Assembly: GCA_047459655.1 (NCBI GenBank)
Contig: JAJREF010000005.1
Location: 160,001 to 224,000, forward strand
Direction: 5' to 3'
From: Rhabdochlamydiaceae bacterium
Lineage (GTDB): Bacteria > Chlamydiota > Chlamydiia > Chlamydiales > Rhabdochlamydiaceae
Length of the DNA stretch: 64,000 nucleotides
Shown here: positions 4,821 to 56,490 of the stretch, piece after piece
Layout: the number at the start of each line of letters is the position of its first letter
How positions within the stretch are numbered: position 1 is the first letter of the stretch
Notes under the pieces: generated by a model
Seen by the model: the letters and a program-made list of their open reading frames with translations, nothing else
Told to the model about the DNA's origin: nothing
Database searches by the model: none
Made by a program: the position numbers and the translations under genes

Positions 4821-4848
4821 TGAACCTGAATTTTGCAACTACCTCAGA
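4821..4848 (-). repeat. half copy of the GAGGCAGTTGCAAAACTC palindromic element family
   Basis: reverse complement TCTGAGGTAGTTGCAAAATTCAGGTTCA matches the left arms at 38782 and 51074. Confidence 0.7.
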
Positions 4849-4851
4849 TGT

Positions 4852-6513
4852 CTATTCACTTTCTAAAAGATCTAAGAAGGCGTGTAGCTGTTTCGAGCGT
4901 GTGGGGTGGCGCATTTTACGGAGCGCTTTTGCTTCTATCTGTCTCACTCTTTCTCTTGTCACTTTAAAGCGAACGCCGACTTCTTCAAGGGTTTTTGGTT
5001 TCCCGTCAAGGAGTCCAAATCTTTCAATGAGGACGGTTCTTTCTCTTTCAGTGAGAGTGGACAAGACTTCTCCCATCTTATCTTTTAAGATGGCATAGCC
5101 TGTTGCTTCAGCAGGAGATTCTATAGTTGTATCTTCTAGAAAATCTCCAAATTGGCTTTCTCTCCATCTCCGACTTCAGCTTGCAAAGAAATTGGGTGCT
5201 GCGCAATTTTATAGATCTCACGCACTCTTTCGGGTGTTAAATCTAGCTCAATTGCTAATTCTTCAGGAGTAGGCTCTCTGCCGGTTTCCATCATGAGCTT
5301 TTTAGCGCCTCTGAGGACCTTGTTGATTGTTTCAATCATATGAACAGGGATGCGGATGGTGCGAGCCTGGTCAGCAATAGCTCTTGTGACAGCTTGTCTA
5401 ATCCACCATGTTGCATAGGTGGAAAATTTATAGCCTCGGCGGTACTCAAATTTTTCTACTGCTTTCATAAGGCCCATATTTCCTTCTTGGATTAAATCAA
5501 GGAAAGAAAGGCCTCTATTTGTATATTTTTTTGCAATCGAGATAACAAGACGTAGGTTGGACTCTACCATTTCTCTTTTTGCTTCTTGGCTCTTGTCCAT
5601 CCAGCGTTGTAGCATGCGGACGTCTTTTTTAAACTCGTCGAGCGTTCTTCCTGCGGCTAGCTCGCGTTTGCTCAATTTGCGTTGGACGGCGAGAAGTTTA
5701 GCAGCTGCAAATTTGTTTTTTTCTGCTCTTGGAATCAACTCTTGCATCTCTTTTTCTAAGCTTAAAAATCTGTCATAGGCAGTGAGAATCACTTCGCCGA
5801 AGTCTTCGATGATGTTATGGCGAAGATGCATTTGACGTAGGTAAGCTTGTGTGCGGATTCTGCTCTTTTCGAGATTTTCTAGGATTTTAGACTTGTCGAG
5901 TTTTTTTAGATTTGGATCTCGGAGCTCGACTAAATAATTTTGTAAGACAGCGTCTTCCTCTTTGAGGAGGTTGCATAATTTTAAAAGGATGGTCAGGTAA
6001 TGGGCCTTATCGGTCACTTCTTTTTCAGAGATAACCTTATCGAACCTTTCTTTATTCGTGATGAGGTAGTTGGCAATTGAAATGGCTTCTTGTCGAGTAG
6101 CGGAAACGGAGAATGATTTTTTCAACTTGGATCTGAGCTTTTTCAATTCTCTCGGAGATCTCCACTTCTTCTTCTCGAGTTAGAAGTGGAACAGATCCCA
6201 TTTCTTTCAAATACATCCGCACAGGATCGTCTGATGTGCCTTCTGTTCTTTTTCCAAGGCTTTCGATTTCCTTTGCTTCTTTCTTACGCTCCTTTTGGCG
6301 TTCTACATCTGCTTGGTTTTGAACTTGAATGTCCATTCCGCTCAAGAAAATCAAAACCTGATCGATTTGCTCGGGTGAGTCAAACGTCATTGGTAAGATT
6401 TCGTTGATTTCTTCGTATGTGATGTAGCCTTGTTCTTTGGCTAGGGATACCAGCTCTTCAACTTTTTGTTGATGCTGTTGATTAAAAATGTTTGAAAAAT
6501 TACCTTTACTCAT
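4852..6513 (-). CDS. rpoD: RNA polymerase major sigma factor (sigma66), two frameshifts
   Basis: [36 protein letters not shown] and [15 protein letters not shown] motifs spread over three ORF pieces. Confidence 0.97.
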
Positions 6514-6561
6514 GCAATTTCTTAATCATCCAATGATTATTCAGTTAAAGTCAAGAGGTCT

Positions 6562-7338
6562 ATGCAATTATACGCTCTACACAAGCAAGTTCCCATACTC
6601 GCCCAAGCTGCCTCAAAAAAACAACACTACCAGTGTCCCGAATGCGCAAGTCTTGTTCAAGTAAGAGGAGGCCCTCATCGTCAGCTTCACTATTTCCACG
6701 TTCGCAAAAATAGGCACTGCCGCCAACACTCTAAAAGTATAGCACATTTAAAAATCCAGCTCCACCTTAAATCCTTAATTCCTGAGGTTACTCTAGAGAA
6801 ATCTTTTCCTGCCATCGGCAGAATTGCAGATGTTGCATGGGAAGAAAGAAAAATTGTTTTTGAAATACAGTGCTCTCCTATTTCTAAAGAAGAGGTGGAA
6901 AGTAGGTGTAGAGATTACGAAAAAGCAGGCTACACTCCTGTTTGGATTCTCTATGCCAAACGTTTTAATAAAAGAAATTTAACGGCAGCAGAAAGCTTTT
7001 TAAGGAAAAGACCCTGTTTTTTTGCCGATGGTTTTAAAATCTACGACCAGTTTGAAATTATTCACAGGGGAAAAGAGTTCTTGCGGGGCCCGCCCCTAGT
7101 CGTCTTGCTCAACCAACCTCTTTCTAAGATCCCTTCCTTGACAAGCCCTCCTTTAGCAGTCTCTGTCAGAGCGTGGCCCATCTCTTTTCAAGGAGATCTT
7201 TTACACAGGCTCTCTGAGGGAACCCTTCCCCACCTAAAATATTTAGAGAAAAGATTTGCTAAACATTCCACCTTGTTTAGTTGGAAAGGTTTCTACCGCG
7301 AGCTTTTTTATAACTTGCTTGCCCGATTAACTCATTAA
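6562..7338 (+). CDS. CoiA-like competence nuclease family protein
   Basis: CPEC..HYFH zinc motif and RIADV..FEIQCS PD-(D/E)xK motif. Confidence 0.85.
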   Translation: MQLYALHKQVPILAQAASKKQHYQCPECASLVQVRGGPHRQLHYFHVRKNRHCRQHSKSIAHLKIQLHLKSLIPEVTLEKSFPAIGRIADVAWEERKIVFEIQCSPISKEEVESRCRDYEKAGYTPVWILYAKRFNKRNLTAAESFLRKRPCFFADGFKIYDQFEIIHRGKEFLRGPPLVVLLNQPLSKIPSLTSPPLAVSVRAWPISFQGDLLHRLSEGTLPHLKYLEKRFAKHSTLFSWKGFYRELFYNLLARLTH

Positions 7339-7787
7339 AGATGAGCGGTATTTGAGGATCCAGAAATAGCCCAGGAGCCCGAGAATAATCAGAGCATTAA
7401 AACATTTTTTGGAGGGGAAGGATTTTTCTAAAGAAGATATGGCAGGGTTTTTATGACTATACCATACAACCCAGCTGTGTTGTTTTTTTTGTGCCACTCC
7501 TTGTTCAGCAGAGGGACGATTTAAATAGTAGGGTTTTGAAAAAATCATTTGTCCATTCCACTCTTTTCCCTCTAAAGAAAAGGTGTTAAAAGCTTCGATA
7601 GCTAGCTTGGAGGGGAATATTCTACTATTTTCCATGTATTCACTTGGACAGCGGTAGCCCGATCGAGTTGTGTGTAAGAATAGAGCGCGACCCCGCTACA
7701 GAGCAAAACCAGCCTGCAGCTAACCCGACAATCATAAATAAGACCTTGAACATATCTCCCCAAAACAGGTAGAATACAGCTCATCAA
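7327..7787 (-). CDS. hypothetical membrane protein, probably one gene split by a frameshift
   Basis: overlapping ORFs 7602-7787 and 7327-7635, each with a hydrophobic segment. Confidence 0.5.
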
Positions 7788-7807
7788 TATTTATTTCAGG
7801 TTAATTT

Positions 7808-8101
7808 ATGTCAGAAGAAAAAAAAGTAAGTGAAAAAGGTCTCAAAAAACGTACTCCTTCAGCTCAAAAGAGGGATCTACAGAACGAAAGAAAAAAGCAT
7901 CACAACCACGGTTTAAAAGCCAAAGTTAAGACGGCGATTCGTGCGTTCGAAGATTCTGTGACTGCTGGCAACAAAGCAGATGCGAAAAAGCACCTCAATC
8001 TCGTCTACAGCTTGATGGACAAAGGCGTTAAGACAAACTTGTTCAAGATGAACAAGGCGTCTAGAGCTAAATCAAGACTTTCTGCACGCGTTGCAAAATA
8101 G
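7808..8101 (+). CDS. rpsT: 30S ribosomal protein S20
   Basis: SAQKRDLQNERK..KTAIR..DKGVK..NKASRAKSRL. Confidence 0.95.
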   Translation: MSEEKKVSEKGLKKRTPSAQKRDLQNERKKHHNHGLKAKVKTAIRAFEDSVTAGNKADAKKHLNLVYSLMDKGVKTNLFKMNKASRAKSRLSARVAK

Positions 8102-8110
8102 ATCTTCTTA

Positions 8111-8163
8111 GAGCCAGTTGCAAAACTCGAGATTCGATAGAATCTGAGTTTTGCAACTGTCTC
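8111..8163. repeat. palindromic element between convergent genes; may also act as a terminator
   Basis: GAGCCAGTTGCAAAACTC / GAGTTTTGCAACTGTCTC 18-bp arms with one mismatch, plus an inner AGATTC/GAATCT stem. Confidence 0.85.
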
Positions 8164-8164
8164 C

Positions 8165-9103
8165 TTAGGCTAGCAGAGTTTTCCAATCGATTGTTCCAAT
8201 TACAATTCCGAGCATACAGAGAATGTTGGCTTTCCAGTTAACTTTCTCTTTGTATAGCCATTGCCCCCAGAGATTACAGAGTACGATGATCGTGATAGCA
8301 AAAAGTGGATAGATCATCGCATGTTCAAATGAAGTAGCAACTTCTGTACTCCAAATCATAAAAAATGTTCCAATTCCGTTAGCAATACCTCCAAAGATCC
8401 CATAAATAACCTCCCCTTTATAGAGTTTTCTCTTCTCTTTGGAGAAGATGAAGGATTGGATGACAAAAGCAGCGCAAAAGGCCATTGGCATGAACCATTG
8501 ACTTTTTACATCATCGGTATCAAAAGAAAGAAGGAGTCCGTTGGCATCTGGGAAATTGATAAAAAGAGCTCGCCAGCTTAGAAATACAAGAAAAATCACG
8601 TGGAGAAAAAAAGCGGCTGTGACAAAACTCACCCAGTTTGCTTTTTTTTCACCACTCCCTCCTGTTTGCCACCCTGCCCAAAACAGCCCTAGTAGTACAA
8701 TAACAGATCCAAGGGCATGCCATAGGGTATAGAGATATCCAAAAGCGCTTCCGAAGCAACAGGCCATGACAATACTTGGCATCACGGTTGATCCGTTAAG
8801 CGCCGCAAAAGTAAGTCCTGGAGGGCCTGTTTCTAGCGCTCTTCCCAAACATGCCATCATGAACGCTAAAACAATCCCTCCTGCAACTCCAAATAAAGCC
8901 ATGCTCGAGCTCCACTGGTAATTGCCACTTCTAACGGGATTGAGTAAAATTGCAATCAAAAACACTAAGAAAAACTGAATCATCAAGAAAGCTTTGGTAG
9001 ATCCTCCTGAATCAATACTTTTACGCATACAGTAATTCGATGTTGCGACAAATAAACCAGCTAAGATCATGAGTTCTGTTCCAAGCATGCAATACCTCTC
9101 CAT
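8165..9103 (-). CDS. EamA/DMT family transporter
   Basis: about 10 hydrophobic helices in two repeated halves. Confidence 0.75.
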   Translation of the reverse strand: MERYCMLGTELMILAGLFVATSNYCMRKSIDSGGSTKAFLMIQFFLVFLIAILLNPVRSGNYQWSSSMALFGVAGGIVLAFMMACLGRALETGPPGLTFAALNGSTVMPSIVMACCFGSAFGYLYTLWHALGSVIVLLGLFWAGWQTGGSGEKKANWVSFVTAAFFLHVIFLVFLSWRALFINFPDANGLLLSFDTDDVKSQWFMPMAFCAAFVIQSFIFSKEKRKLYKGEVIYGIFGGIANGIGTFFMIWSTEVATSFEHAMIYPLFAITIIVLCNLWGQWLYKEKVNWKANILCMLGIVIGTIDWKTLLA

Positions 9104-9130
9104 TACAAGAGGAGAAGTCTATTATTTATT

Positions 9131-9949
9131 TTAGCAAGATGCAAGAAAAATCGAGGAGTCTATTTTTTGGACGTTGATGATAGGATAGGAGAAAAATTTT
9201 TCACCTAGCAAGGGGAATTTCTCGGGTGCATCGGAGACGTAAAAATCGTAGGTGGGAGGTGTCATAGAAACACGTAAGAGGTGTAGGTTTGTGAGGTGCT
9301 CTTTGACGGATTGCGCGCATCCTATAGCAGGATCGATTAAAGAAACAGGATGGGGAAAGTAGTTTTGGATTTGTCTAGATAAAAGAGGGAAATGGGTACA
9401 CCCCAGCAAGATAGTGTCAGCAGAGGTGAGAGATTGTAGGTACTCATGGATGGTTAATGCGGTTAAGGGGTGATCGATGAAACCTTCTTCGACCAAGTTA
9501 ACAAAGAGTTGACAAGGGATCCCGGTAATATCGATATGGTGACATTTTTCTTGGATCAATTTTTGATAAATCCCTGATGTAATGGTTGCACGAGTTCCAA
9601 GAATTGCCACTTTTTTTGCATGAGGAAGAAGTGCAATTTGTTCAACAGCTGGATGGGTAACACCTATAACAGGAATAGGGAATAGTTTTTGGAGCGTGTC
9701 AAGAGATAAGCAGCAGGCTGTATGGCAAGCTACGACGAGTAATTTGATATTTTGCGCGATGAGAAAAGAAGCATTTTCAATGGCGTAACGAAGGACAGTC
9801 TCTTTGCTTTTAGTTCCATAGGGGATTCTAGCGGTGTCGCCAAAGTAGACAATGTTTTCAAAGGGAAGGGCTTCCCGGATGGTTTTCATGACAGTCAGGC
9901 CCCCAAAACCTGAGTCAAAAATTCCAATGCTCTTATCTGAGTGGGGCAT
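9131..9949 (-). CDS. murI: glutamate racemase
   Basis: IGIFDSGFGGLTV, ACHTA and LGCTHFP motifs. Confidence 0.95.
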   Translation of the reverse strand: MPHSDKSIGIFDSGFGGLTVMKTIREALPFENIVYFGDTARIPYGTKSKETVLRYAIENASFLIAQNIKLLVVACHTACCLSLDTLQKLFPIPVIGVTHPAVEQIALLPHAKKVAILGTRATITSGIYQKLIQEKCHHIDITGIPCQLFVNLVEEGFIDHPLTALTIHEYLQSLTSADTILLGCTHFPLLSRQIQNYFPHPVSLIDPAIGCAQSVKEHLTNLHLLRVSMTPPTYDFYVSDAPEKFPLLGEKFFSYPIINVQKIDSSIFLASC

Positions 9950-10512
9950 ATGGTTCAGGTAGCTGAAGAGTTTGGCCGATGAGGATTTTATCGCCTTCAA
10001 GACGATTGATTGTTTTTAAGGTTTCAACAGAGGTTCCATGGGCTTTAGCAATTTTTGTAAGAGAGTCACCATTCTTTACTTGATAATAGGATGTTTTTTT
10101 TGATTCGATGTAGTGCGAAACGGAGACAAGGGCGCTTTTTACCTGATCTATATCTGCTATTTTTCGATCAAGAGCTTGAATATGATCTCCATATGAGGCG
10201 CTACGCTTTAGATCGGTTGATACTTTGTCTTGTGTTTTTTCAAGGAGTGTATTTTTTTCCTAAAACAGTCAGCTCTTCTTCTAAGTAATCAGTTTTAGAA
10301 GCGGTTTGATTTTCTAATTTTTCTTCTAAGAGGTGTAACTCTATTTCTGTTGCATGGATAGAGTGTTTGAGATCGGCAATTTCTGTTCGTATCTCTTCTA
10401 AGAGGGCTCCATTATCTTTAAATCTTTGGAGCGCGGCAAAGGGGGAGACGCATCCCCCCATTATTGCTAATGCTCCAATAAAAAAAACTGTTTTCAAAGT
10501 TAAGGTTGGCAT
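9933..10512 (-). CDS. LysM-domain lipoprotein with coiled coil, frameshifted
   Basis: lipoprotein-like N-terminus (IMGGC); downstream frames give VKNGDSLTKIAKAHGTSVETLK..ILIGQTLQLP (LysM); follows pal as in other chlamydiae. Confidence 0.8.
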
Positions 10513-10514
10513 AT

Positions 10515-11179
10515 TTATTTTTTATATATACGGAAGTGCCCGCGTCTATTTTGCGACCAAGCATCGGGATCATGCCCCTCTTTGAAAGGCATTTCCTTTC
10601 CGCACGATATCGTGTGTACTTGGCGTGCGTCGACACCTTCTTTGACTAAAAGTGAACGGACATAGTTAGCTCTTTTTGCACCGAGTGCCATGTTGTAAGC
10701 TCCAGGGCCTCTTTCATCGCAGTGGCCTTCAACGATGATAGCAACACCAGGGTGAGCTTTTAAATAAGAGATCATCCGATGAATGGTTTCTAGGTGTTCT
10801 TTATTCTTTAAGACATATTCATCTGTGTTAAAGAAGACGGGTTTAAAAATAGAGGCAAGCTCTCCTTGAGGATCTGAGAATTCATTGGCTCCAGGGACTC
10901 CATCTTCACCGAGAGAGGAAATGGGAGTTGCATCGTTTTTGAATTGATTTTTTAGATCATCTTCATTCAATGGGATGAATTCCTCAGAAGAAAGCATCAA
11001 CGCATGATCTTCTGAAGCATCTTCCCCGCTTTCCCATAGAGAAGAGCTGTTTTTTTGGACTGTTGATAAGTTCCATTTGGTTGATCATCCCATGTGTTGG
11101 GGGATCTATGTTGACATCCGGCCATCCACAATATTGCTGGGCCGAGCAAAAAAATCTTCAAAAGTTGCGTTTTTTTCAT
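10515..11179 (-). CDS. pal: peptidoglycan-associated lipoprotein (OmpA domain), frameshift near 11000
   Basis: MAGC lipobox; VEGHCDERG..YNMALGAKRA..NRR motif. Confidence 0.93.
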
Positions 11180-11212
11180 AATTTATCCTTAGCGGTAGTT
11201 ATAACTACTTCC

Positions 11213-12589
11213 TTAATGATTTCCCCATGTCGGGTAGTGTTTCACACCAGGGCCTTGGGAAATCTTTATAGCTTCTGGTTGATTTAAATTCACAATATAT
11301 AAATCTGAAGATACAGCATCTGTGGCATCAAACACAATATGATTACTATCAGATGCCCAAGAAGGATTTTCTTTGATCCCCGGCCCTTCTGTCAGCTGCT
11401 TTTCTTCTTTTGTTTCGAAATCATAAATCCAAATTTGGCGTACACCATTTGTTTTAGCGCTATAGGCTAATTTTTTTCCATCAGGAGACCAAGCTGGGCA
11501 AGAATTTTCCTGATTTTCTTTGGAAATCAAAATGGGAGTGGCTCGCTTGCCTTGGAATCTAGCTGGGATAATGTAGATCCGAGGAGATCCATCTTTGTCA
11601 GATACAAAGGCAACTCTTAGACCCGTCAGGACTAAATGTGGGAGAAGCTTGGGTAGCTTTTGGAAAAGAGAATAACTGGACGGGTTTTCCCACTTCTCCT
11701 GTTTCAGGATGAAACTCTTGAAGGAACAGGTCGATATTTCCTCCTGCATCTGAAATAAATGCAATTTTATCTCTTTTTGGGGAAATAGCTGGGAGCATTT
11801 GATGTCCTTTCAGATCGATCAATCGTTTTCCTGCTCCATCTTTCAAAGAAGCAAGGAAAATCTTGGGTTGTCCAGATTTGTAAGATACATATAGAAAGCG
11901 GTCGTTGGCAAATTTTGTATGAGGAGGAATAAAGACAGGTGTTACGCAATAACTGCCCTCTTTTGTGATCTGTTTTGGGTTAGCGCCATCCCAATCACAC
12001 GACCAAATTTCAGAGACCCAATCTCTTTTATGGGAGGGCTTTTGTTTAACAGAGTAAAGGATGCGTGTGCTTGCAATCCCATCTGTTCCAAACAGCGCTT
12101 TGTGGACAGCATCTGCTGCAACGTGGATTTGGTGGCGATCTTTTCCGATAATACCTGTTAAGGGAATGTCTGTAAATTGTTTAAGAGATCCTGTTTCTGA
12201 GGAGAAAACAGTGAGGGATAGCATCTTGTTCTCAATTTTAGCTTGTACAACGTGGGCTGCTCCAAAATTTCTCCATACCATGGGATTAAAAGCTGCGCTT
12301 AAATTTTTGTGTGCAAGCACTGCTTCTTTTTCTGCAGAGAGGGCATGATTTTTGTAGACCCATTATAATTAAAATCATAGGCGAGGATGTCTTCCAGAAG
12401 ACTTACATATTTAGCATCAACCCCTTCACCAGACTTTACTACTTTACCAAAATAGAGAGGCTCTAGAGAATTTGTAGTGGGAAGGTAGACGCGGATTTCC
12501 TGGGCATCTTTAGGTGGTTCATCCGATGCGCAGACAGATAACGTAGATATAAGGCTTAGGGAAAATATTATTTTATGTAAAAATCGCAT
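11213..12589 (-). CDS. tolB: Tol-Pal beta-propeller protein, two frameshifts
   Basis: PD40-type repeats (PAWSPDGKKLAY, PTFSPDG); tol-pal context. Confidence 0.92.
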
Positions 12590-12598
12590 AATTTTAAC

Positions 12599-22894: not shown

Positions 22895-23826
22895 TTAGAC
22901 TTTAGCAGATAAAAGAGGGAGAATGTCTTCCTGTGGCAGCGCAGTTGCAAGCGCAACCTGGTCTACTGAAAAGCCTTTTTCAAGCATAGCTTTGGCGGTT
23001 TCGATAAGCGCTGCTTGACGCCCTTCTTCGCATCCTTTCTTATGCCCCTCCTGAAGGCCTTCCTCATGTCCTTTCCTACGCCCTTCTCGGTGGCCTTCTT
23101 CACGTGCCTCTGTTTTAGCAGCGTCTATCATGCCTTGCGCATCTGCGGTATTCATAATGAGCTTTTCATACCATTGAAGCTCCCCTTCTGTCCAATGGTA
23201 GCGATCTAAGATTTCATAGGCTGCTTTAATTTCAGGATGGTTGGAAAGGACCGCTTCGATGTCCTTGCTCTCATCGGCGTGTTTGAGGAAATAGTACCAT
23301 CTGTCTTCAATGGTTTTGAGTTCTTCAAGGGTTTTTGTGAATTTTGGTAGTTCTACAAAGGTAAAATAAAAGTCCTTGAGATCGTTTTCATGGGAAAGGT
23401 TGTCTAGAATGACATGGTCAGATTTATACCCTTCTTTTTTCAGGAAAGACAACATAGTCAGTAATGGCTAAAAAAACAACTTTTTTCAAATCGGGGTATT
23501 TTTGCCTGCGCCAAAGTGAGCGCAATACGTTTTCGCAGCATAGTACTGCGCTCTTTTTTCAAAACCCTCGACTTTGGCAACTTGCATCTCGATGATATAT
23601 TTAACACCTGATTGATCTTCTACAAGAACATCCACAATGCTTTCCTTTCTGGCTTCAATTTCAGGAGCTTGTTTGGTGTTAAGAAACTCAAGAGAAATGA
23701 TTTTGTGCTTTCCTGTTAAATGAAATACAGCATTGAGAAAATCTATCGGAATACGTTTGTGCTTTTCAGCTCCAAACACTTTTTAAATGCTAAATCGTTT
23801 CTGGGATCTAAATATCTTGTAGACAT
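22895..23826 (-). CDS. Rpn family (PD-(D/E)xK) recombination-promoting nuclease/putative transposase, frameshifted
   Basis: YLDPRNDLAF, VDV..IIEMQ..RAQYY, FVELPKF and C-terminal EG repeats. Confidence 0.88.
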
Positions 23827-27642: not shown

Positions 27643-27686
27643 ATACCGTTTCCATTAAATATAAATTTATTTAATGGAAATGGTGT
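27643..27686. repeat. intergenic inverted repeat
   Basis: ATACCGTTTCCATTAAAT / ATTTAATGGAAATGGTGT 18-bp arms with two G-T pairs. Confidence 0.7.
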
Positions 27687-31051: not shown

Positions 31052-31138
31052 CGGAAAGAGTGGGATTTGAACCCACGGTACCCGTAAAGGTACGCGTCCT
31101 TAGCAGGGACGTGCCTTCGGCCGCTCAGCCATCTTTCC
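31052..31138 (-). tRNA. tRNA-Ser (GCT)
   Basis: reverse complement GGAAAGATGGCTGAGCGG..CCTGCTAAGG, long variable arm, GGTTCAAATCC. Confidence 0.95.
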
Positions 31139-31198
31139 TTAAGGGAAACACTTTAGACCTTAGCTACGCAACAGGTCTTATCAGTTCGGAAGAGGTCT

Positions 31199-35203: not shown

Positions 35204-35227
35204 GTTACTCCATGGACATTATACCAT

Positions 35228-35393
35228 TAGACATCTTGCGTATTAAGGGTTCGTCGATTTTGTGGATTATTTTGGCCGATTCTCATTCCAATGGCAAGGG
35301 CAATATATACTCTATATTACCCTTGCCATTGGAATGGAGAATCGGCCAAAATAATCCACAAAATCGACGAACCCTTAATACGCAAGATGTCTA
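35228..35393. repeat. 166-bp near-perfect palindromic element
   Basis: 57-bp perfect outer arms (TAGACATCTTGCG..), one bulge, a further 16-bp perfect stem and a small loop. Confidence 0.95.
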
Positions 35394-35395
35394 TT

Positions 35396-35539
35396 TATTA
35401 AAAATACCCCGCATTTGAGCGCGTCAAAGCACCGCAATTCAGCGATCGCAAGTTGGGTTGTATTTGCCTAATACTACCCAACTTGCGATCGTTGAATTGA
35501 GCAGCTTTCGCGCAGCTGAAATGCGGGGTATTTTTAATA
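35396..35539. repeat. 144-bp palindromic element overlapping the cyoA 3' end
   Basis: 21-bp perfect termini TATTAAAAATACCCCGCATTT and an inner stem of about 30 bp around GGGTTGTATT..AATACTACCC. Confidence 0.9.
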
Positions 35540-36393
35540 CATGGCATTAGGTATTGCATAATGATATCGTCAAAGAGGCTATCTTTTGTCAGTTGATAAA
35601 AAAGAGGATTAGGGTTTTGGCCTGGCCGGACTAACTCACTATACGTTTCCCAATTTAAACTTTTATCTGATGAGCGCACAGATGAGACCCAGCTATTAAA
35701 TTCCTCTTCAGATGAGGCTTTGGCTGTAAACACCATGCCTGCAAATCCATCTCCACTGATATTAGCAGACGATCCTCTAAATGTTCCTGGTTCATTGGCA
35801 ATGAGATGAAGCTGCGTTTTCATCGCTGGCATTGCATAAATCTGGCCGCCTAATTGTGGAATCCAAAATGAATTCATGGGTGCATCAGCGGTAATTTCAA
35901 AACTAATCGGGACATTTTCTGGGAATTGGACAAAATTGATCGTTGCGATTTTTTGTTCTGGGTAGATAAAAAGCCATTTCCACTGCAGAGCCACCACTTG
36001 AATTGTCATTGGTTTTTTTTCTGTAACAATGGGCTTGTAGGGACTTAAATCATGACTAGATGACCAGGTTATCAAGGCTAAAAACAGGACGATTACACAA
36101 GGAATGCCCCACCAAAAACATTCTGCAACATGACTTGTATCCCAGTTTGGTTTGTATTCGGCTTTCTTATTCTGATGGCGATATTTCCAGGAAAAAACAG
36201 CTGTCATGATGAAAACAGGAACGACTACAATGAGCATGAGCCATGTTGCTGTAACCATCAAGTTGCGTTGTTTTAAGGCGATGATCCCCTTCGGATTTAA
36301 TACAGCGATATCTTGGCTATAAAAAAACCAAACGGTTAGTGCGCTCAATCCACACAAAAGAAAAGCAATGATTACAATCTTTAAATTTTTCAT
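35398..36393 (-). CDS. cyoA: cytochrome bo3 ubiquinol oxidase subunit II; last about 46 aa derive from a palindromic element
   Basis: LNPKG, VVALQWKWLFIYP and MNSFWIPQLGGQIYAM motifs. Confidence 0.95.
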   Translation of the reverse strand: MKNLKIVIIAFLLCGLSALTVWFFYSQDIAVLNPKGIIALKQRNLMVTATWLMLIVVVPVFIMTAVFSWKYRHQNKKAEYKPNWDTSHVAECFWWGIPCVIVLFLALITWSSSHDLSPYKPIVTEKKPMTIQVVALQWKWLFIYPEQKIATINFVQFPENVPISFEITADAPMNSFWIPQLGGQIYAMPAMKTQLHLIANEPGTFRGSSANISGDGFAGMVFTAKASSEEEFNSWVSSVRSSDKSLNWETYSELVRPGQNPNPLFYQLTKDSLFDDIIMQYLMPCIKNTPHFSCAKAAQFNDRKLGSIRQIQPNLRSLNCGALTRSNAGYF

Positions 36394-36956
36394 TTAGCAC
36401 GCAATTAGATACTAGATAGCAGGAATATTTTCAGTTGTCTAGCGAATAAAATCAGCGTGGGAAAGACGTCTACCATTGAGAGCATTCCAGTGGCTGATAT
36501 GAGTTGAGTCATCGGGGTTTTGTACAACGATGCTGTGCACAGGGAGGTAGACATATGTGATTTTGCGTATGGCAAAATCTTGGCCAAAGGCAGCTTTTGC
36601 TATTTTTTCGATTTGCGCTGAACTAAACTGTCTAGGAAGGCGGATTGCTTTTTTATATGGCTTGGTCACGAGCCACTCATCAATGCGGGTTTCAGGAATG
36701 GTCCGTAAGCGGGGTGCATTTAGATGCAATCGGTAATCATTGCCTGATTGAACGATCAGTTTTTTCTTTTGGCAGCTTTGGATCCAGCTGTCTAAAATTT
36801 CTTGGTCGATGTTGAGGGATTTAGAAAGGCCATCTCGATCAAGAGACCCCCTTTTTTGGCTAAAAGGCTTAAAATTTTAAACTCTTGCACATTTGTATCT
36901 GCATAAATGCAATCCCCAAAACCGTGTGTTTTATCCCACTCTTTTGTGTTGATGAC

Positions 36957-38441
36957 CTTGTCACTACCCACAAATACCAAGAAAAAAATTTAATAAAAAT
37001 GACAAGTAAATAGTTTATTATATACATCGAATATTGTATAATTTTTCTCCTAAACAATAGGAGATCAATATGTTAAATCATCAAAACTGGGTTTTAAAAC
37101 AATGGCCTTCATATCTGTTTTTTGATCAAAGGCATCAAAAAGAGTGCTCAACATCGCGTTAGCGATGTTGAGACTTCCTTCAGCTTCTATTCCGAAGCGA
37201 TTTGAGGTTCAAAAAGAAATCAAAGGTTGTTATCGTTTTCTCAATAACAAGGCAGTCAATCATCAAATGTTACAAGGCGAACACTACAAAAATGTCCTTG
37301 CAGAAGCAGCTTCAGCACCGGGAAGAGTTCTTTTTATCCAGGATGGAAGTGAGCTAATTTATAATAATCTCAAGTGGACAGAGCTAGGACCTACCGCTGA
37401 TGCAAACGGTAATGGGATTATGTTCCATACCTGCCTTGCTGTTAAAATTGTTGACAATCAACCTCAAGTCATTGGACTTACCGGGCAAAAAGCTTGGATT
37501 AGAAGGCACAAAAAAGAAAAAGCCAATCGTAAGGCGCAAGAAGCACGTGAATCTAAAGTATGGAAAGAAATGATAGACCTCATAGGCTCCGTGCCTATGA
37601 ATTGCAAATGGACAACTGTGGGAGATCGGGGAGCTGATATTTTCTCATTTGTGGAATCACTTCCTCCTGGATGGGACTTTGTTGTTCGCTCAAAACATGA
37701 CCGTAAAATTTTAGTCAATGATGAGGAACAGAACTTGAGGAAATATATTCGAGGGCTCCCTTCCATGGGCACAACAATTCATTCTCTACGAGCAAGAAAA
37801 GGCCCTTCTCGAGAAGTCACGCTGCAGATCAGCTGGCATGAGGTTGATGTGCTGCCTCCGGCAGCAGAAAAAACAAAAAGCCTATTAGAGGCTGTTATGT
37901 GCGTGCTTGGTCTGAAGAAGATCCAGATCTGGAGTGGATTTTATTTACTCGCCCCACGATAACTTCCTTCGAAGAAGCCTTAGAAATCGTGACGATATAT
38001 AAATATCGATGGCTAATCGAAGAATATCACAAATGTTTAAAAACCGGATGCAAGATTGAAGAGGCTCAACTCAAAACCTCAGATCGCATACTGACGCTTT
38101 TTGGCTTGCTAGGTGTTATTGCTACGCAGCTCCTGCAGCTCAAAACCCTTTCACGAATGAACCCCGATGATCTAGCTGATAAATATGTAGACAAAGACTC
38201 AATCCTTGTTTTACAGAGTATTTACAACTTGAAGATGCCCTGGACCGTAAAAGAATACTGGAGAAGAGTTGGGATGCTTGTTGGTTTTATGGGAAGAAAA
38301 TCAGATGGAGGTCCTGGGTGGCAAAAAATCTGGGAAGGCTGGGTTAAGCTGCGAGATCTATGTCGAGGAGTTGAGATCGGAAGGAAGTTAGGTGCAGTAT
38401 GTGTTTAAAAAATTTGCTTGGAAGTTGTGGGTAACGACAAG
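36957..38441 (+). mobile_element. IS4-family (IS50/Tn5-like) insertion sequence, 1485 bp
   Basis: terminal IRs CTTGTCACTACCCACAA / TTGTGGGTAACGACAAG; 9-bp direct repeat GTTGATGAC at 36948-36956 and 38442-38450. Confidence 0.93.
37070..38408 (+). CDS. IS4-family DDE transposase, frameshifted
   Basis: IQDGSEL, VGDRGADI, YKYRWLIEEYHKCLKTG (YREK motif) and PGWQKIWEGW. Confidence 0.92.
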
Positions 38442-38781
38442 GTTGATGACCATTTCTCCATCTGTTAAATCCATAGAACAACACTTTCATGGGTTTTGTT
38501 GTCGTTCAAAGTGTACTTCACTTCCATCATGAGGTAGGGGTAGAACTCTAGAAGAGGATCTAAGTAGCGGTGTCTATTATCCTTTAGGAGTTCTTTTCGA
38601 TGTTTTTCCATGATCTGGCTAGAAGTATAGCGGATTTCTAGCGTATGGAAGTGTCCTACATCGAGCACTTCTTCGACTTTTGTTTTTATATCAGGATGAT
38701 TACCTGCAATCCAAAAAAGCCCATATCCTGCAACAAAAAGAGAAAACAAACTTACAAGCAACCGCATATAAAAAACCTTTT

Positions 38782-38826
38782 GAGGCAGTTGCAAAACTCA
38801 GGTTCAGTCGAATTTTGCAACTGCCT
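38782..38826. repeat. short palindromic element (GAGGCAGTTGCAAAACTC family)
   Basis: AGGCAGTTGCAAAACTC / GAATTTTGCAACTGCCT arms. Confidence 0.85.
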
Positions 38827-38835
38827 TTTTTATTT

Positions 38836-38994
38836 ACTCACCTTACGCAAAAAGGATGGCTCATGGACTGTTTGAAAGCTGTTGATAAATCGAATTGCAG
38901 AAAATGGGTAGTATTGAATGAAATACAACCCAATTTCTGCAATTCGATTTTCAACGCTTTGAAACAGTCCATGAGCCATCTTTGCGTGATGAGT
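38836..38994. repeat. about 159-bp imperfect palindromic element
   Basis: GATGGCTCATGGACTGTTT/AAACAGTCCATGAGCCATC and AAATCGAATTGCAGAAA/TTTCTGCAATTCGATTT stems; centre TGGGTAGTATT..AATACAACCCAA shared with 35396-35539. Confidence 0.9.
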
Positions 38995-46426: not shown

Positions 46427-46565
46427 ATGAGACTCCCTTGTAACTCACCTTGCCCAAAAAGGAAGGTGAGTCTGTAAACATCTTATGCAAGAAATAGATT
46501 TTGCTCCAAGCGTTATCTTGCAAACCATCTTTACTTACATTAAATTAGAGGAAAATGGGGTGTCT

Positions 46566-48811: not shown

Positions 48812-48851
48812 ATCCTATCAATGATACTAATAGGATCCTTTAAATGGAAGG

Positions 48852-48990
48852 ACCTGTCCTGATAATAAGTTTTTGTTAATTTTTCGTTTTACCAGAGTTA
48901 TGCAGAGGTCTGTACACAGTGGATATTGCCCCTTGCAAAAGAGTCCAAAATAATCGCAAAAATCGACAGAAACTTATTATTAGGACAGGT
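48852..48990. repeat. about 139-bp degenerate palindromic element
   Basis: ACCTGTCCTGATAATAAGTTT / AAACTTATTATTAGGACAGGT termini; internal CCAAAATAATC..AAAATCGAC shared with 35228-35393. Confidence 0.8.
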
Positions 48991-49093
48991 TCAAAATGTG
49001 TTTTTTAGTTTTCATGTTTTTTGTTAATTAGTTTTATTTACTTGAAATATAATTCTTATTATTATAATTTGTAATTAAAGCGCGGAGGCTATT

Positions 49094-50974: not shown

Positions 50975-51073
50975 GCACCCCTAATTTTTGAGAATCTAAT
51001 CATCTCAATAAATCAAACACGAATCCCCTCTTATTATACAAAATTGCTTTTAAAGAGCAACTCTTATCCTTCT

Positions 51074-51140
51074 GAGGCAGTTGCAAAACTCAGGGTTCGT
51101 CGAATTTCGGGATTGTTTTGACCAATTTTTGCAACTGCCT
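51074..51140. repeat. palindromic element (GAGGCAGTTGCAAAA family) with an internal segment shared with 35228-35393
   Basis: AGGCAGTTGCAAAA / TTTTGCAACTGCCT arms; internal 32 nt match the 35228 element at 27/32 positions. Confidence 0.85.
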
Positions 51141-51147
51141 ATTCTAT

Positions 51148-52347
51148 TTATTTTTTGTCGGAAAGGGCATCTATTCCAGGCAGATGTCCAAATTCTAAAT
51201 ATTCGAAAGCCGCTCCTCCTCCTGTAGAAATATGGGAAAATGCGCTCGCAAGGCCTAAGGAGTTGATGGCAGCGACAGAATCTCCTCCTCCTACAACGGT
51301 TGTAGCTTTTAGGGAGGCAATCGCTTTAGCAATCTCTTGCGTCCCTCGCGCAAAGAGAGGAAATTCAAAAACGCCCAGAGGTCCATTCCAAAATACGGTG
51401 GCAGCATCCTGGAGTGCTTTTGTCCATATTTGAACGGTTTGAGGCCCGATGTCAACACCTTGCCATCCTTTAGGGATCCCCTCTTCAACACGGATCGTTT
51501 TATACGTCGCATCTTTACGAAAAGCGTCGGCAATAACGAGGTCTACGGGGAAATAGATTTTTGTTTTAGAGGATGCCTCTAACAAAGAGAGGGCCTGTTG
51601 TAAGGAGGTTTCGTCATAGATGGAATCGCCGATTTCAATCCCTTGAGCTTTTAAGAATGTGAAGGCCATGCCTCCTCCAATAAAAAGAGCGTCCACTTTG
51701 GAAAGAATAGATTTTAAAACACCCAATTTTGTAGAAATTTTTGCTCCTCCAATCACTGCAAAGAAGGGGTGGGAAGGATTCTTAAAAAGAGGGTTTAGAA
51801 AGGCAAGTTCTTTCTGTATTAATAATCCCATTGCTGATTTGTTGGGCAGTAAGCTGGGCACAATAACAGTTGAGGTGTGGGCTCTGTGAGCTGTCCCAAA
51901 GGCATCGTTGACATAAAAATCTGCAAGGGTAGCGAGTTGTTTTCCAAAGGTGGAGTCTAGGGAAGGTTTTTCTTCTGCTGGGTAGAAACGTAAATTTTCT
52001 AGAACCAGTACTTGTCCACCTTTTAGTTCTTGAATAGCTTTTTCTGTTTCTTTACCCACACAATCCGTTGTAAAGAAAACAGGAGCAGCGATCAGTTGAG
52101 AGAGTCGTTTAGCGCATATCCCTAGAGAATACTGTATATCCCGTTTTGACTGAGGTTTCCCCAGGTGGCTGATCAAGATAACACTGCCGCCTTGATTGAG
52201 GATATATTGAATGGTAGGTAGAGCTTCGCGAATTCTTGTATCATCAGAAATGGTTCCATCTTTATTTAATGGAACATTGAAATCGACTCTGACTAAGACT
52301 TTTGACCCTTTGAGAAGAAGGTCTTCAACGCGTAGTTTATTGACCAA
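51148..52347 (-). CDS. pgk: phosphoglycerate kinase
   Basis: RVDFNVPL, NDAFGTAHRAH, VGGGDS and HISTGGGA motifs. Confidence 0.97.
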   Translation of the reverse strand: MVNKLRVEDLLLKGSKVLVRVDFNVPLNKDGTISDDTRIREALPTIQYILNQGGSVILISHLGKPQSKRDIQYSLGICAKRLSQLIAAPVFFTTDCVGKETEKAIQELKGGQVLVLENLRFYPAEEKPSLDSTFGKQLATLADFYVNDAFGTAHRAHTSTVIVPSLLPNKSAMGLLIQKELAFLNPLFKNPSHPFFAVIGGAKISTKLGVLKSILSKVDALFIGGGMAFTFLKAQGIEIGDSIYDETSLQQALSLLEASSKTKIYFPVDLVIADAFRKDATYKTIRVEEGIPKGWQGVDIGPQTVQIWTKALQDAATVFWNGPLGVFEFPLFARGTQEIAKAIASLKATTVVGGGDSVAAINSLGLASAFSHISTGGGAAFEYLEFGHLPGIDALSDKK

Positions 52348-52421
52348 GTTTATCTATCCCCTAAGGAAGCTACACATAACTGGAGATTAATGATAAAGTC
52401 AAAAAACAGCCAACTAAATTG

Positions 52422-53170
52422 TTACAAATTTGAAAAGGGATTGGAGGCTGTGTTAAATCCCGGCCCTTTTTTTCGTTTTTGGAGCTCTGTACGGATGGAG
52501 AAAATAAGGTCTTGATCAAAATCTCCACGGGAGGCCCATTGGAGATATTCTATGGGGATTTCATTGAAAGGTCTTCCTTTGTACTTTCCTAGCGGCATTG
52601 CTTTGAGCAGGATGGGTTTTTTTAGCCGTTCAAAGAGTTGTTCTGTTGTTTTAAAGGAAGTTGCTAAATGTTTGAAGACTTCAATGTTAACAATCACATC
52701 ACTCATAGCTCTATGTGCGCCTTCAGATTGGATGTTGAAATGCTGTCGCAGTTTCTCTAAAGAGTTTGTCGGGCTTTCTCCATATAATCTAGCCATGCGG
52801 AGCGTGTCGATAGTTTGATTGGCTTCTAACTTACAAGGAATCTGATTGCGCTTTGCAGATTCACAGAGAAACAATAAATCTAGCTTAATCCCATGTCCTA
52901 CAATGATATGGTTCCCCAAGGAGGCTAAAATAGCGGGGAGAACTTGTTGGATTTTTGGCTTATCTTTCACCATGAGATCCGTGATATGGTGGATTTCTAT
53001 TGAGGGGGGCTGATTTTACAATCGGGGTTAATGAGTGTTTCATAATTTTCTATGATTTCAGAGAATGTGAATTTAACAAATGCGATTTCGATAATGCGGT
53101 CATTTCTTCCATCTAAACCTGTTGTTTCACAGTCCAAGCAACAGAAGATGTCTTTGTCAATTAGTCCCAT
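52422..53170 (-). CDS. dnaQ: DnaQ-like DEDDh exonuclease with C-terminal DUF3820-like region, frameshift near 53010
   Basis: LDCETTGL, HRAMSDV and MPLGKYKG motifs. Confidence 0.85.
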
Positions 53171-53762
53171 AGATCCTTTTATTGATGTTGCTGGCCAGAT
53201 TTTTTTTTGAGATGGAATCTTTAATAGAGTAATGTAGGGCGCTATGTTGTTTTAATTCTTTCAGAGCAAGCTGCGCTTGTTTCTCCCTTTCATGAGGCGT
53301 GAGTGTGTCTGACTTTGTAAATATGATTAAAATAGGTTTTTGATAATGCTCTGCCCATAGTATGAGCGTTAATTCTTCTTCAGCAGGAAGGCGTCTACTA
53401 TCAATCAGAAGGAGCAAAAGTTTGAGACAGGGGCGATTTTTTAGATAGAGATCGATCCCCGTTGCCCATTCTTCTTGGAGAGTTTTTGATCTTTTGGCAA
53501 ATCCATATCCGGGTAAATCGGCTAAAATCAGTTTATCATCGACATTAAAAAAATTGATCGTTTGTGTTTTGCCAGGTAAAGAAGAAACCCGGGCCAAGTT
53601 TTTGTGGTTTAGTAAATGGTTGATGAGGGAAGATTTTCCTACATTTGATCTGCCTGCAATTGCAATTTCCGGAAGAATTTCTCCGTGCTTGCTGCGGAAT
53701 TCTGGGAAAGAAGTTAGGAAAGAGCCTAAGAAGGTGCCATGGACAAAGTTGCACTTTTTCAT
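53157..53762 (-). CDS. engB: ribosome biogenesis GTPase YihA/YsxC
   Basis: GRSNVGKSSLIN, PGKTQ, DLPGYG and TKSD motifs. Confidence 0.95.
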   Translation of the reverse strand: MKKCNFVHGTFLGSFLTSFPEFRSKHGEILPEIAIAGRSNVGKSSLINHLLNHKNLARVSSLPGKTQTINFFNVDDKLILADLPGYGFAKRSKTLQEEWATGIDLYLKNRPCLKLLLLLIDSRRLPAEEELTLILWAEHYQKPILIIFTKSDTLTPHEREKQAQLALKELKQHSALHYSIKDSISKKNLASNINKRIYGTN

Positions 53763-54184
53763 CTGATTACCTCAATTGTTCGAGAGGTGTCACCTGCATG
53801 AGAAAGGACAACTTTAATGGTAGATGGGGGTAGAAGAGCCGCTATTTTTTCAGACCACTCGATACAACAAATGCCGCCTGCTGTGAAAAATTCATGAAAT
53901 CCCAAAGCTACAAAGTCGGTGCCATTATTTAGTCTGTATAAATCGAAATGGTACACAGAAATATCTCCAGGGTAAATATGCAAATATGTGAATGTAGGAC
54001 TATGGACCTCGTCAGGAGAGATGTTTTGTAGGGTCGCAATAAGACTTTTTAAAAAGGTCGTTTTCCCAGAGCCCAGATCTCCAAAAAAAGCCACAATATC
54101 CCCTTGTGTTAAGGTAGCAGCAAATCTTTTTGCAAAAAGATCTGTTTCTTCAAGAGACGAAACCGTTAGTTTAAGATTCCTCAT
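53759..54184 (-). CDS. tsaE: t6A biosynthesis ATPase
   Basis: GDLGSGKTTF, SPTF, HFDLYRL and IEWS motifs. Confidence 0.95.
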   Translation of the reverse strand: MRNLKLTVSSLEETDLFAKRFAATLTQGDIVAFFGDLGSGKTTFLKSLIATLQNISPDEVHSPTFTYLHIYPGDISVYHFDLYRLNNGTDFVALGFHEFFTAGGICCIEWSEKIAALLPPSTIKVVLSHAGDTSRTIEVIR

Positions 54185-54908
54185 CAGTTGCACTTTCAAG
54201 CCATTGATTGAGATAAGGCGCAAACTCCTTTATCTCAGAGACGGCTTCAACAAAGGCTGAAATTTTGCTGTCATCTAATTGAGTTTGGATGAAGAGTAGA
54301 AAATTCTCTTCGATTTGGTAACGATTCTGGTTGGGGACTTCAACAAGCTCAAGAGTTTTTAACTGATTTTTGATGAAATCTTCAATGACCGCACTTTTGC
54401 TGTTAAAGAGTTTTCCTGTAACTGCCGAAGAAAAAACGATTTTTTTCATGGGCTCTTTACGCTTAACAATATAATTTTTGATCACTTCTGGATCTTCAGA
54501 CACAAAAAAGCGCTTGACGCGCAACCCGTTGAGTCTTTCTGTGTTTTCAGGGCATTTCGATACCCAGTCATAAATAGCATCTTGAGGATTCGGATGAGTG
54601 TTGTCTCCAAAAACCTTCCCTGTGTGAGGGCAGATATAAATTTTTTTAGTTTGATCGTTGACGCTTTGTTGCCCAAACTGAATTTTAATCTCTGTTTCTC
54701 TCCAGAGTTTTCCTTGCTCTTCTAGCCTGCGAACGAGGTCTTCTTGACTCTGATAGATGGTTTTTTCGCGCGCAAAAAGAACAGGTTTAATGTGGTGCTT
54801 TTTTTCAAGAAAATATAGATAAGTGGTGATCAGATCAGCCTTCTTGTTTTTTCTTAAGAAAGACAAGACCACTTCTTTTAAATTATCAGTAACAACAATC
54901 GTAGACAT
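54171..54908 (-). CDS. conserved chlamydial protein (DUF2709-like)
   Basis: KIYICP.TGKVFGDNTHPNPQDAIYDWVSKCPEN; adjacent to tsaE as in chlamydiae. Confidence 0.75.
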   Translation of the reverse strand: MSTIVVTDNLKEVVLSFLRKNKKADLITTYLYFLEKKHHIKPVLFAREKTIYQSQEDLVRRLEEQGKLWRETEIKIQFGQQSVNDQTKKIYICPHTGKVFGDNTHPNPQDAIYDWVSKCPENTERLNGLRVKRFFVSEDPEVIKNYIVKRKEPMKKIVFSSAVTGKLFNSKSAVIEDFIKNQLKTLELVEVPNQNRYQIEENFLLFIQTQLDDSKISAFVEAVSEIKEFAPYLNQWLESATDEES

Positions 54909-54996
54909 TATGCCTCAATTTTTATAACAGTCCAGGCTATCTTAAATCCCCTTAATCTTCAACTAAAAGATTGCAGTAGCGGGATATAATATTTTT

Positions 54997-56223
54997 TTAA
55001 GAAAGTTCAACTAAGGTATGTATAGGCCTGTGATCAGAGACAGACGTTGGATCTAGTCTATGGGGGTTGTAGGAAACTTCTATAACATGAGTGTTTCCGA
55101 ATCCTGCTCCAACTCCAACCTTTGTAAAATCTAGACGTACAGGGGCCGATGCAACCTCACTGTAGCATTTATCGCCCATCCACGTTGGTTGATTCTCGAT
55201 ATCTGGATTTTTATCGGTGGTAAATAGGTTTTTCTCTTTCCAAAAGGTGTGTTCATAATAGTGCCCCTCTTCCGGGCCCAAATTGAGGTCTCCTGTGAGA
55301 ATCACCCGTTTTCCTAGATCAGTTACTCGATTTGCAAGCAGGGTCATGGCCCGTGTTCTTGCATTTAGTTCTACCTCTGTTGGTTCGTCCGGTTTGTGTG
55401 AACTGGATAAGTGGGTCCCTATTACGGTTACTGTTCTTCCGCCTCCTAAGTCTACCTTTGCCTCATACCAACCTTGTCCCGCTGGTCTTGCGCGTGGTGT
55501 TTTTGCCTCTGGAGGAAAAGGGGTAAACGTGAATTCTTGAATAGGGAATTTGCTAGCAAAGAATAGGCCTGATCCAGGTGCCATAGGCTTTCTGCCCATG
55601 CTATGACAGGTATGATATCCTTTTTTGCCTAATTCTTCAGAAAAGCTAGTAGCCACGCTTGTATGAAAGACTTCAGAGAGGCAAATAAGATCTGTAGGAT
55701 TTGTTTTGAGAACACTTACCACGTCGTCGAAACGAGTAGATATTTGATCTTCTGCATTCCTTCTCATAAACCAATCAGGAAGTACGCCTGTGTCGGAGAT
55801 GAGGTGTCCTGACCGTATCATCCCTATATTGAATGTCAAACATGAAAAAGAGGGCAGATTGCCATTAGAAATGAGCTGGTGGGGAGCTGTAAAGCGGACA
55901 AATGGGTGGGCTTCTAGGCGGGTGGCAAGCCAGCGCAAGGGAATGGCAGGCAGAGCAAGGGGAGCTAGAGCCCCCCATAAAACCATTCGCATTATATATA
56001 AGGCCCGGTTTGCTAGAGGAGCTTCTGGATGGAGATGATGAGCTACTTGTTGCAACCGGAAGTATAGGTGCACGCAACAGGCTGGTACTGTTCCGAGGGC
56101 AGCAACTCGGAAAAGCCTCTGAGCAGCAGCGTCTTGGTGAGGAACAGTCGCTTTGGCCAATCTTTGTGCTCCATTCAGAATGTAAGCAAAGGGGGCGTGT
56201 GCAAGGCGTAATGCTATATCCAT
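54997..56223 (-). CDS. endonuclease/exonuclease/phosphatase family protein, sphingomyelinase-like, with hydrophobic N-terminal extension
   Basis: TFN, CLSEVF, GSGL..ASKFPI, THL, GDLN, LD and SDH motifs. Confidence 0.8.
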   Translation of the reverse strand: MDIALRLAHAPFAYILNGAQRLAKATVPHQDAAAQRLFRVAALGTVPACCVHLYFRLQQVAHHLHPEAPLANRALYIMRMVLWGALAPLALPAIPLRWLATRLEAHPFVRFTAPHQLISNGNLPSFSCLTFNIGMIRSGHLISDTGVLPDWFMRRNAEDQISTRFDDVVSVLKTNPTDLICLSEVFHTSVATSFSEELGKKGYHTCHSMGRKPMAPGSGLFFASKFPIQEFTFTPFPPEAKTPRARPAGQGWYEAKVDLGGGRTVTVIGTHLSSSHKPDEPTEVELNARTRAMTLLANRVTDLGKRVILTGDLNLGPEEGHYYEHTFWKEKNLFTTDKNPDIENQPTWMGDKCYSEVASAPVRLDFTKVGVGAGFGNTHVIEVSYNPHRLDPTSVSDHRPIHTLVELS

Positions 56224-56322
56224 AAAAAAACTCCTTATTGCAAGATGTAAACAAAAATGTTACGCACGCTGTTTATTAATTACAATTGTTTTTAGTGATA
56301 TTAAAAAATTTAATACCCTTTT

Positions 56323-56490
56323 TAGGGAGCCTCTGGACAGGTGCTTTGTCGGAGATGGCTGATTAATTTTTCGAAGACGACGATTTTGGAAAACGCAGCT
56401 AACATGCAGAATGTTAGCGATTTTGAAAAATCTAGTATTCGCAAAAATTGGCAGCAAGATTCGGCAAATGACTTGTCCAGAGATTCCTTA
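56323..56490. repeat. about 168-bp imperfect palindromic element between divergent genes
   Basis: CTCTGGACAGGT..TTTGTCG / CGGCAAA..ACTTGTCCAGAG termini; central GCTAACAT..ATGTTAGC hairpin. Confidence 0.75.

Follow-up and report, generated by a model that had tools for sequence, protein, structure and literature searches.

The 64,000-nucleotide stretch analysed here (the window; positions 160001-224000 of contig C5) belongs to a Rhabdochlamydiaceae genome (G000; 1.61 Mb in five contigs, 82% complete) and carries, among its genes, a set of palindromic hairpin elements and their remnants. Two ATP/ADP translocase genes and a DUF2709 gene are annotated in this setting and suggest an environmental chlamydia. 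Split genes are numerous; run X1 possibly stems from the source sample itself and would then not be independent, and its short-read contigs differ at several breaks by single-base insertions or deletions, so that many of these breaks are assembly errors. A preliminary description of the window had listed nine main hairpin elements and three shorter relics as a dispersed, modular family resembling Rickettsia palindromic elements (RPE). All nine are real, at coordinates that were exact or off by a few bases. Hairpins scoring at least 16 number 31 on the window's contig against 0 in Markov-matched control sequence, and 164 genome-wide. The elements and remnants are listed below (strand is given where one was assigned; letters denote terminus types, chassis I and II are shared middles described below, IS stands for insertion sequence, and G002 is a close relative).

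2395-2413, reverse strand: single B-type end, from the end-profile scan
4821-4845, reverse strand: K-type half copy (one end), directly after a tRNA gene; site empty in G002
8111-8163: short K-type element, 53 bp, 4-bp duplication CTTA; partner IS not found
27644-27685: probable minimal remnant, IS630-type (TACC) ends, TTA on both sides; E 0.015, below control in the end-profile scan
35222-35546: G-type element, chassis I, IS630-type ends, 3-bp TTA duplication; 118 bits, copy in training set
35229-35392: 164-bp O-type element nested in the G-type element, with chassis II, an ATT duplication and the ends of a 0.9-kb IS5-family (DDE_Tnp_4) element
38782-38827: short K-type element, 46 bp; region empty in G002
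38836-38994: B-type element, 159 bp, chassis I, IS701-type ends, 5-bp duplication TATTT
46443-46471: minimal B-type remnant, from the end-profile scan
48850-48992: M-type element, 143 bp, IS5-family ends, C-type end fragment in left arm; empty in G002
51074-51141: 68-bp K-type element with a remnant of chassis II and TTCT duplicated (4 bp); empty in G002
56326-56487: 162-bp A-type element bounded by IS5 ends, with an interior of its own; 58 paired copies genome-wide

The elements placed at 35228 and 35396 had been taken for neighbours, but they are nested: the 164-bp O-type element, flanked by its duplicated ATT, lies within the left end of the G-type element, which measures 158 bp without it. 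The left arm of the 48850 element also holds a fragment from another family, and one X1 contig covers 48582-49192 with zero differences. Contigs from four DNA runs gave no joint skipping an element, which says nothing for or against insertion. As claimed, the internal segment shared by the 35228 and 51074 elements matches at 27 of 32 positions, and the tip GGGTAGTATT-N5/6-AATACAACCC is common to the elements at 35222 and 38836. Among the shorter relics, 27644-27685 is plausible (it agrees with an IS630 end at 15-17 of 22 positions and has a weak model match), while 23877 and 31154 are unproven; in the end-profile scan 23877 and 27644 scored below the best of one shuffled window, and near 31154 a single position (31199) exceeded it with a single profile. 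The remnants at 2395-2413 and 46443-46471 were absent from the earlier list. Those at 4821 and 31154 adjoin tRNA genes (4735-4807 and 31052-31138). Where the 8111 element sits (8100-8180), G002 carries ~2 kb of extra DNA, so this site may mark a deletion in the present genome rather than a clean insertion.

Genome-wide, 257 repeat regions occupy 34,591 bp (2% of the genome), and their full-length copies split into at least a dozen sequence families. Of the 131 paired copies with true boundaries (two of them counted under both F and O), 88 fall between 159 and 168 bp, with 40 below and 3 above this range; families unrelated to one another converge on 161-166 bp, and nesting of copies is common. 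The length of the target-site duplication is specific to the terminus type and amounts to 2, 3, 4 or 5 bp. Counted as exact duplications among paired copies, it is 4 bp for termini A (34/58) and K (4/11), 5 bp for B (5/14), C (4/10) and D (5/5), 3 bp for E (3/3), F (4/5), O (8/11), H (6/7), J (3/4) and N (2/2), and the dinucleotide TA for L (1/1).

Comparison with G002 (~80% DNA identity; 1.108 Mb compared of ~1.6 Mb) reveals insertion. Both flanks are collinear there for 67 of the 257 regions: 44 of these are empty sites, 2 have equal length in both genomes and 21 are unclear; G002 bears its own copies at other positions. Of the empty sites, 25 lie outside open reading frames (ORFs; at least 100 codons), although ORFs make up 90% of that DNA, and the other 19 are no more than 95 nt away from an ORF end. 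The in-frame insertion inside conserved genes that an RPE affinity would imply finds no counterpart, as 0 of the 44 sits deeper than 95 nt from an ORF end. One effect on a protein is at cyoA, where the G-type element (35222-35546) is inserted just upstream of the stop codon, so that the last 3 residues of CyoA are exchanged for 47 element-coded ones (35398-35546). The gene ends in QYMMPME-stop in G002, and the window minus the element and one TAA reads QYLMSME-stop. An O-type copy in G002 (L239, ~10480-10650) is identical to the window's O element over its first 52 bases despite the ~80% genome identity, which would reflect either recent exchange or strong constraint.

For most termini, the outer 15-30 bases of the elements match IS5, IS630 or IS701 ends, nearly all of the autonomous partners coming from other chlamydial genomes. 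Family A ends match an IS5 at C3:6644-7825 of this genome (NF033581, 295 bits) at 17-18 of 20 positions; in both copies of this IS5 the gene is disrupted close to its start, with no gap in the X1 contig there. Both ends of the window's A-type element resemble the right end of this IS5, and 36 of 53 copies of the family have both arms nearer that right end than the left one; a variant in genome G006 has the IS5 left end on both arms. In L194, the end comparison gives 11/20 for the left end against 15-16/20 for the right. Decayed IS5-like transposase pieces cluster beside this partner (C3:4900-6480). The D ends match an IS5 with a 5-bp duplication (L164), and the F and O ends, including those of the 35229 element, match 0.9-kb IS5-family DDE_Tnp_4 elements with a 3-bp ANT duplication. 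For the M ends of the 48850 family, the best genomic copies match L493 at 17 of 17 positions, this partner being itself a partial NF033580 match under the cut-off. The B ends of the 38836 element match a multi-copy 1155-bp IS701 (L304; 345 bits, cut-off 250) at 17-18 of 20. The E and G ends, the latter at 15-19 of 22 positions and including the 35222 element, match an IS630 with a TAA duplication (L533), the TATAC ends match 8 of 13 scorable IS630 right ends at 18-21 of 24 (shuffled maxima 15-18), and TAGTAC ends also match IS630 ends. A chassis-I copy (L022) is identical at 20-21 of its first 21 end bases to an IS5-family element (L476).

Hence the mobilising enzyme, which the preliminary description had left unnamed, is largely accounted for by the match of the ends to those of IS5, IS630 and IS701 elements, with which the duplication length agrees. 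The copies match several unrelated IS families rather than one. For K, the closest ends found belong to the IS5 family, at 10-11 of 14 or 16 positions, and blastn of two termini against plasmids returned chance matches only. Family searches of G000, whose incompleteness bars any claim of absence, found no Y1_Tnp, IS630 DDE_3, DUF4096, DDE_Tnp_4 or DDE_Tnp_1_2. The B end is present in 77 of 401 Chlamydiota genomes. Counts of B-type ends are very high in G371 (135), G108 (102) and G277 (78), and TACC-type ends number 119 in G378; in this and other genomes copies with these ends carry further middles, of 159-171 bp, that lack a description.

The middles group across these termini. Chassis I comprises the middles of B, E, G, H, I, J and L together with IS630-ended copies from other genomes, at an identity of 0.55-0.89 (shuffled mean 0.49, maximum 0.57), and chassis II those of K, O and two F-ended copies (0.62-0.72); the middles of A, C and D and the common F middle stand apart. 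Since chassis I is found under IS630, IS701 (B) and IS5 (L022) ends, a single middle carries the ends of three IS families. Conversely, the same IS701 (B) end sits on several middles, and six loci have it at the borders of elements, 159-166 bp long, whose different middles escape the chassis-I model.

These observations bear on whether each family could be an ordinary miniature inverted-repeat transposable element (MITE) that arose independently by internal deletion of its own IS, with shared motifs due to nesting, decay or chance. Such an origin is the usual model (PMC3184786), and it is in keeping with the IS ends and duplications of every family, the frequent nesting and the private middles of A, C, D and F. 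However, none of the 8 element-partner pairs has a middle that aligns with the partner IS better than shuffled sequence does. Moreover, the three kinds of end on one middle, the two arms of family A that both favour the IS5 right end and the common length of unrelated families all speak against separate deletions, and we regard this explanation as unlikely.

Chassis I was characterized on an alignment of 50 copies (48 hand-picked from 79 non-redundant matches, plus two window copies; truncated, contig-edge and chimeric copies were left out). Both sides change in 60 of its 71 pairs, and 92.8% of cells pair compared with 64.5% after shuffling. Conservation per column is highest at the tip (0.95), which is invariant by construction because copies were selected on it, followed by the inner motif (GAAAGCT.../...GCTTTG; 0.81), the inner stem (0.6) and the outer 32 columns (0.5). 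Two irregularities are fixed, a G opposite G in 49 of 50 copies and a bulged T in 45 of 50. The sigma-70 spacing is not above shuffles in these copies, and TTGAC, present in 28 of 50 (shuffled maximum 23), is part of the conserved motif.

The strong covariation could mean that the middle is conserved as RNA, be it an RNase III substrate, a small RNA or a terminator, to the benefit of the host or limiting damage to neighbour genes. The insertions between genes or at gene ends would fit, as would the RNA-level effects reported for Correia, ERIC and YPAL repeats (PMC2229807). Yet among the cells of the alignment 3200 are Watson-Crick, 78 G-T and 80 A-C; with G-T and A-C equal, no strand favours wobble pairs, pointing to a DNA palindrome rather than an RNA fold. 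The Rfam search of the window returned only tRNAs at gathering score, the elements themselves giving sub-threshold matches to generic hairpin models, mostly microRNA. As positions are not conserved in G002 and any effect on RNA could be a side effect rather than a cause, we give this possibility very little weight.

The fixed unpaired bases within otherwise freely varying stems could instead identify the middle as the true mobile unit, folded as single-stranded DNA and moved by an HUH/Y1, Rpn or similar enzyme, as REP and attC sequences are, with the IS ends as passengers; an Rpn-family gene is indeed present in the window. Against this, duplication length tracks the ends, as with DDE enzymes, and short copies without a middle retain both ends and duplications. 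No Y1 (PF01797) transposase, the HUH nuclease suggested for consideration by the preliminary description, was found in G000 at its 82% completeness, and no middle without IS ends was noticed, although no systematic search was made. Movement of the middle on its own therefore seems to us highly improbable.

Beyond the alignment, the chassis-I model gives at least 80 matches at 44 or more places in this genome (150 of 334 candidates scored). Of 401 Chlamydiota genomes, 30 have its tip pattern and none has the reversed control, which was 0 in all genomes searched; 29 of 30 tip-pattern loci extend into a longer hairpin. An all-species scan with the same pattern yielded at least 115 loci, mostly titled as Rhabdochlamydiaceae, Simkania, Parachlamydia, Chlamydiales, 'Verrucomicrobiae' or unnamed bacteria; three are titled Acidobacteriota, one of them probably chlamydial since its flanking gene is 67% identical to this genome's. 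An independent metagenome set, selected by the left inner motif alone, comprises at least 119 loci (98 scorable, some of them chance matches). The right motif occurs in 78 of the 98 and the G opposite G in 71 of 82, and 54 of the 70 copies with called ends measure 159-164 bp, lengths being called by terminus class. The ends of these 70 are IS630-type in 57, GGAA/GGAG-type in 9, IS701-type in 2 and GGG-type in 2.

Taken together, the hairpin elements are probably gene-less palindromic type II MITEs of ~163 bp with combinatorial ends, moved in trans by the DDE transposases of those IS5, IS630 and IS701 elements whose ends they share. Insertion into empty sites, a duplication fixed by the terminus, ends that are those of autonomous IS, one middle under the ends of different IS families and one end on different middles are all observed. 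The duplications, empty sites, shared middles and shared ends thus support the proposal in the preliminary description of non-autonomous mobile repeats with swappable ends and middles. By analogy with MITE biology, and given the agreement between ends and duplications, movement would proceed by cut-and-paste with the cognate DDE transposase supplied in trans. A new family may be born by insertion of a copy into or next to an IS end, or by recombination between two copies at a shared middle, either of which would leave an element with two different arms; intrastrand template switching could then copy one arm onto the other, placing the same IS end on both. We infer this exchange of ends from a two-armed chimera with an intact TA duplication (L071), from copies inside or against IS630 and IS982 genes (L161, L182, L203, L212 and L213), from nested copies, and from L075, in which an inner mismatch is corrected to a perfect palindrome, as expected from template switching. 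The weakest step, for which the chances seem about evenly balanced, is that the middle is kept because it raises transposition and stability at the DNA level. It would set the two ends about 163 bp apart, and through its fixed mismatches (G.G, bulged T, A.A/T.T) the palindrome would stay imperfect enough to persist and yet be able to fold back.

Several points weigh against this interpretation. Movement of the elements is deduced from sequence, no transposition having been seen, and 21 of the 67 comparable G002 sites are neither clearly empty nor filled. Two-armed chimeras were flagged in just 2 of 106 copies, one of them convincing. The B middle has a modest identity (0.55-0.64) to the other chassis-I middles, and the TATT..AATA tip is kept in just 47 of the 98 scorable metagenome loci. 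A consensus for integration host factor (IHF) has no exact match among the 50 chassis-I copies and one-mismatch matches in 7, against a shuffled mean of 9.6. Short copies of 33-94 bp recur with intact duplications (among them five 70-bp H copies and four 51-bp B copies), which makes ~163 bp a ceiling and not a requirement. Partner IS were not found for K, H, J, N, P, I and Q, nor directly for C; in this genome the A partner alone was found, with its broken gene. IS630 was not found in G000 (82% complete) and is present in just 13 of 29 element-bearing genomes, so that partners must have been lost, be unassembled or be supplied by transient elements.

The elements also serve as landing sites. 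A group II intron of ~690 bp, too short to encode an intron-encoded protein, is present in two copies (C3:40903-41593, L352; C5:319182-319872, L353; Rfam D1-D4-3 and D1-D4-1), both directly past a hairpin tip, in one case that of an F-type element and in the other that of a C-type variant, and behind identical 7 bases; hairpin elements thus act as group II intron targets. An unclassified 1.47-kb repeat with IS-like ends has ten copies (C1:58293-59781 and nine other places), one of which interrupts an F-type terminus at C1:701908. In the window, an IS4-family element (36955-38443) has 39-bp inverted ends and seven genomic copies; its frameshift looks like an assembly error, as the X1 contig differs by one base, and by eye its ends match none of the hairpin families. 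A split gene for an Rpn-family (PD-(D/E)XK) nuclease or putative transposase lies at 22895-23779, and no link to the elements was found. Elsewhere, an 11.5-kb near-duplicate (C1:652364-663858 and C4:3262-14749, most of contig C4) is possibly an assembly duplicate or a mobile island.

MITEs are usually regarded as decayed copies of a single parent IS. Here, the long-lived unit would be the middle, with IS ends as replaceable parts drawn from unrelated transposase families, offering a route to MITE birth without deletion of a parent. The elements occupy 2% of the genome, alter the end of at least one protein (cyoA) and receive group II introns. The ends and duplication length of a palindromic repeat should allow its mobiliser to be predicted, a point relevant to how RPE- and ERIC-like repeats are moved, and a conserved 100-bp spacer functioning between unrelated transposase ends would inform mini-transposon design. 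A broader reading, which we put forward tentatively and at somewhat less than even chances, is that of a phylum-wide 'universal adaptor': selfish DNA in which a conserved, imperfect hairpin of fixed length repeatedly captures the end of an active IS (IS630, IS5 subgroups, IS701), places that end on both arms and outlives transposase families. The same design may underlie orphan palindromic repeats such as RPE, ERIC and YPAL, in which case their mobilisers could be read from their ends.

Among known systems, the likeness to RPE on which the preliminary description relied extends to long hairpins in an intracellular bacterium, several families and one protein-end fusion (cyoA), as for RPE-1 and RPE-3. 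Membership is not borne out: the RPE1 and RPE3 models are unmatched (TIGR01045, best E 0.27 and off the elements; TIGR03775, none), the chlamydial elements measure 161-166 bp compared with 105-146 bp for RPE (PMC2229807), and the proposed RPE-like ends are, for O and F, those of IS5-family elements. We conjecture that RPE-1 ends share an IS5-family source. The Yersinia YPAL/RU-2 repeats, ~168 bp long, are likewise long intergenic hairpins with empty and filled sites, but their duplications range from 3 to 26 bp and their inverted repeats are internal (PMC2229807), whereas the chlamydial duplications are short and set by IS-type ends. With Correia (NEMIS) and ERIC repeats (PMC2229807), the elements share TA-bounded forms, a palindromic structure and the coexistence of long and internally deleted short forms; they differ in having no IHF consensus, many terminus classes, 2- to 5-bp duplications and identified partner IS. 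The presence of target duplications, and a search that found no PF01797 in the 82% complete G000, separate them from REP/RAYT or IS200/IS605-derived palindromes.

The closest resemblance is to type II prokaryotic MITEs (PMC10969869) and to pneumococcal RUP, tied to IS630-Spn1 (PMC2229807), which are also gene-less, resemble an IS at their ends only, duplicate their target, fold into hairpins and frequently insert into IS genes. The chlamydial elements are short, have no transposase gene, bear terminal inverted repeats and target-site duplications and leave empty orthologous sites, and in the A, B, D, E/G, F/O, M and TATAC types likeness to an autonomous IS is confined to the ends. The MITEs compared in PMC3184786 are reported to show no similarity in their cores, and our literature search, which did not extend to most subscription papers, returned no description of these chlamydial elements or of a middle shared across IS families. 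Unlike type II MITEs and RUP, the elements described here have a middle shared by IS630, IS701 and IS5 ends, one end placed on several middles and a single length in unrelated families, and we provisionally take the middle shared across IS families to be a new feature for MITEs.

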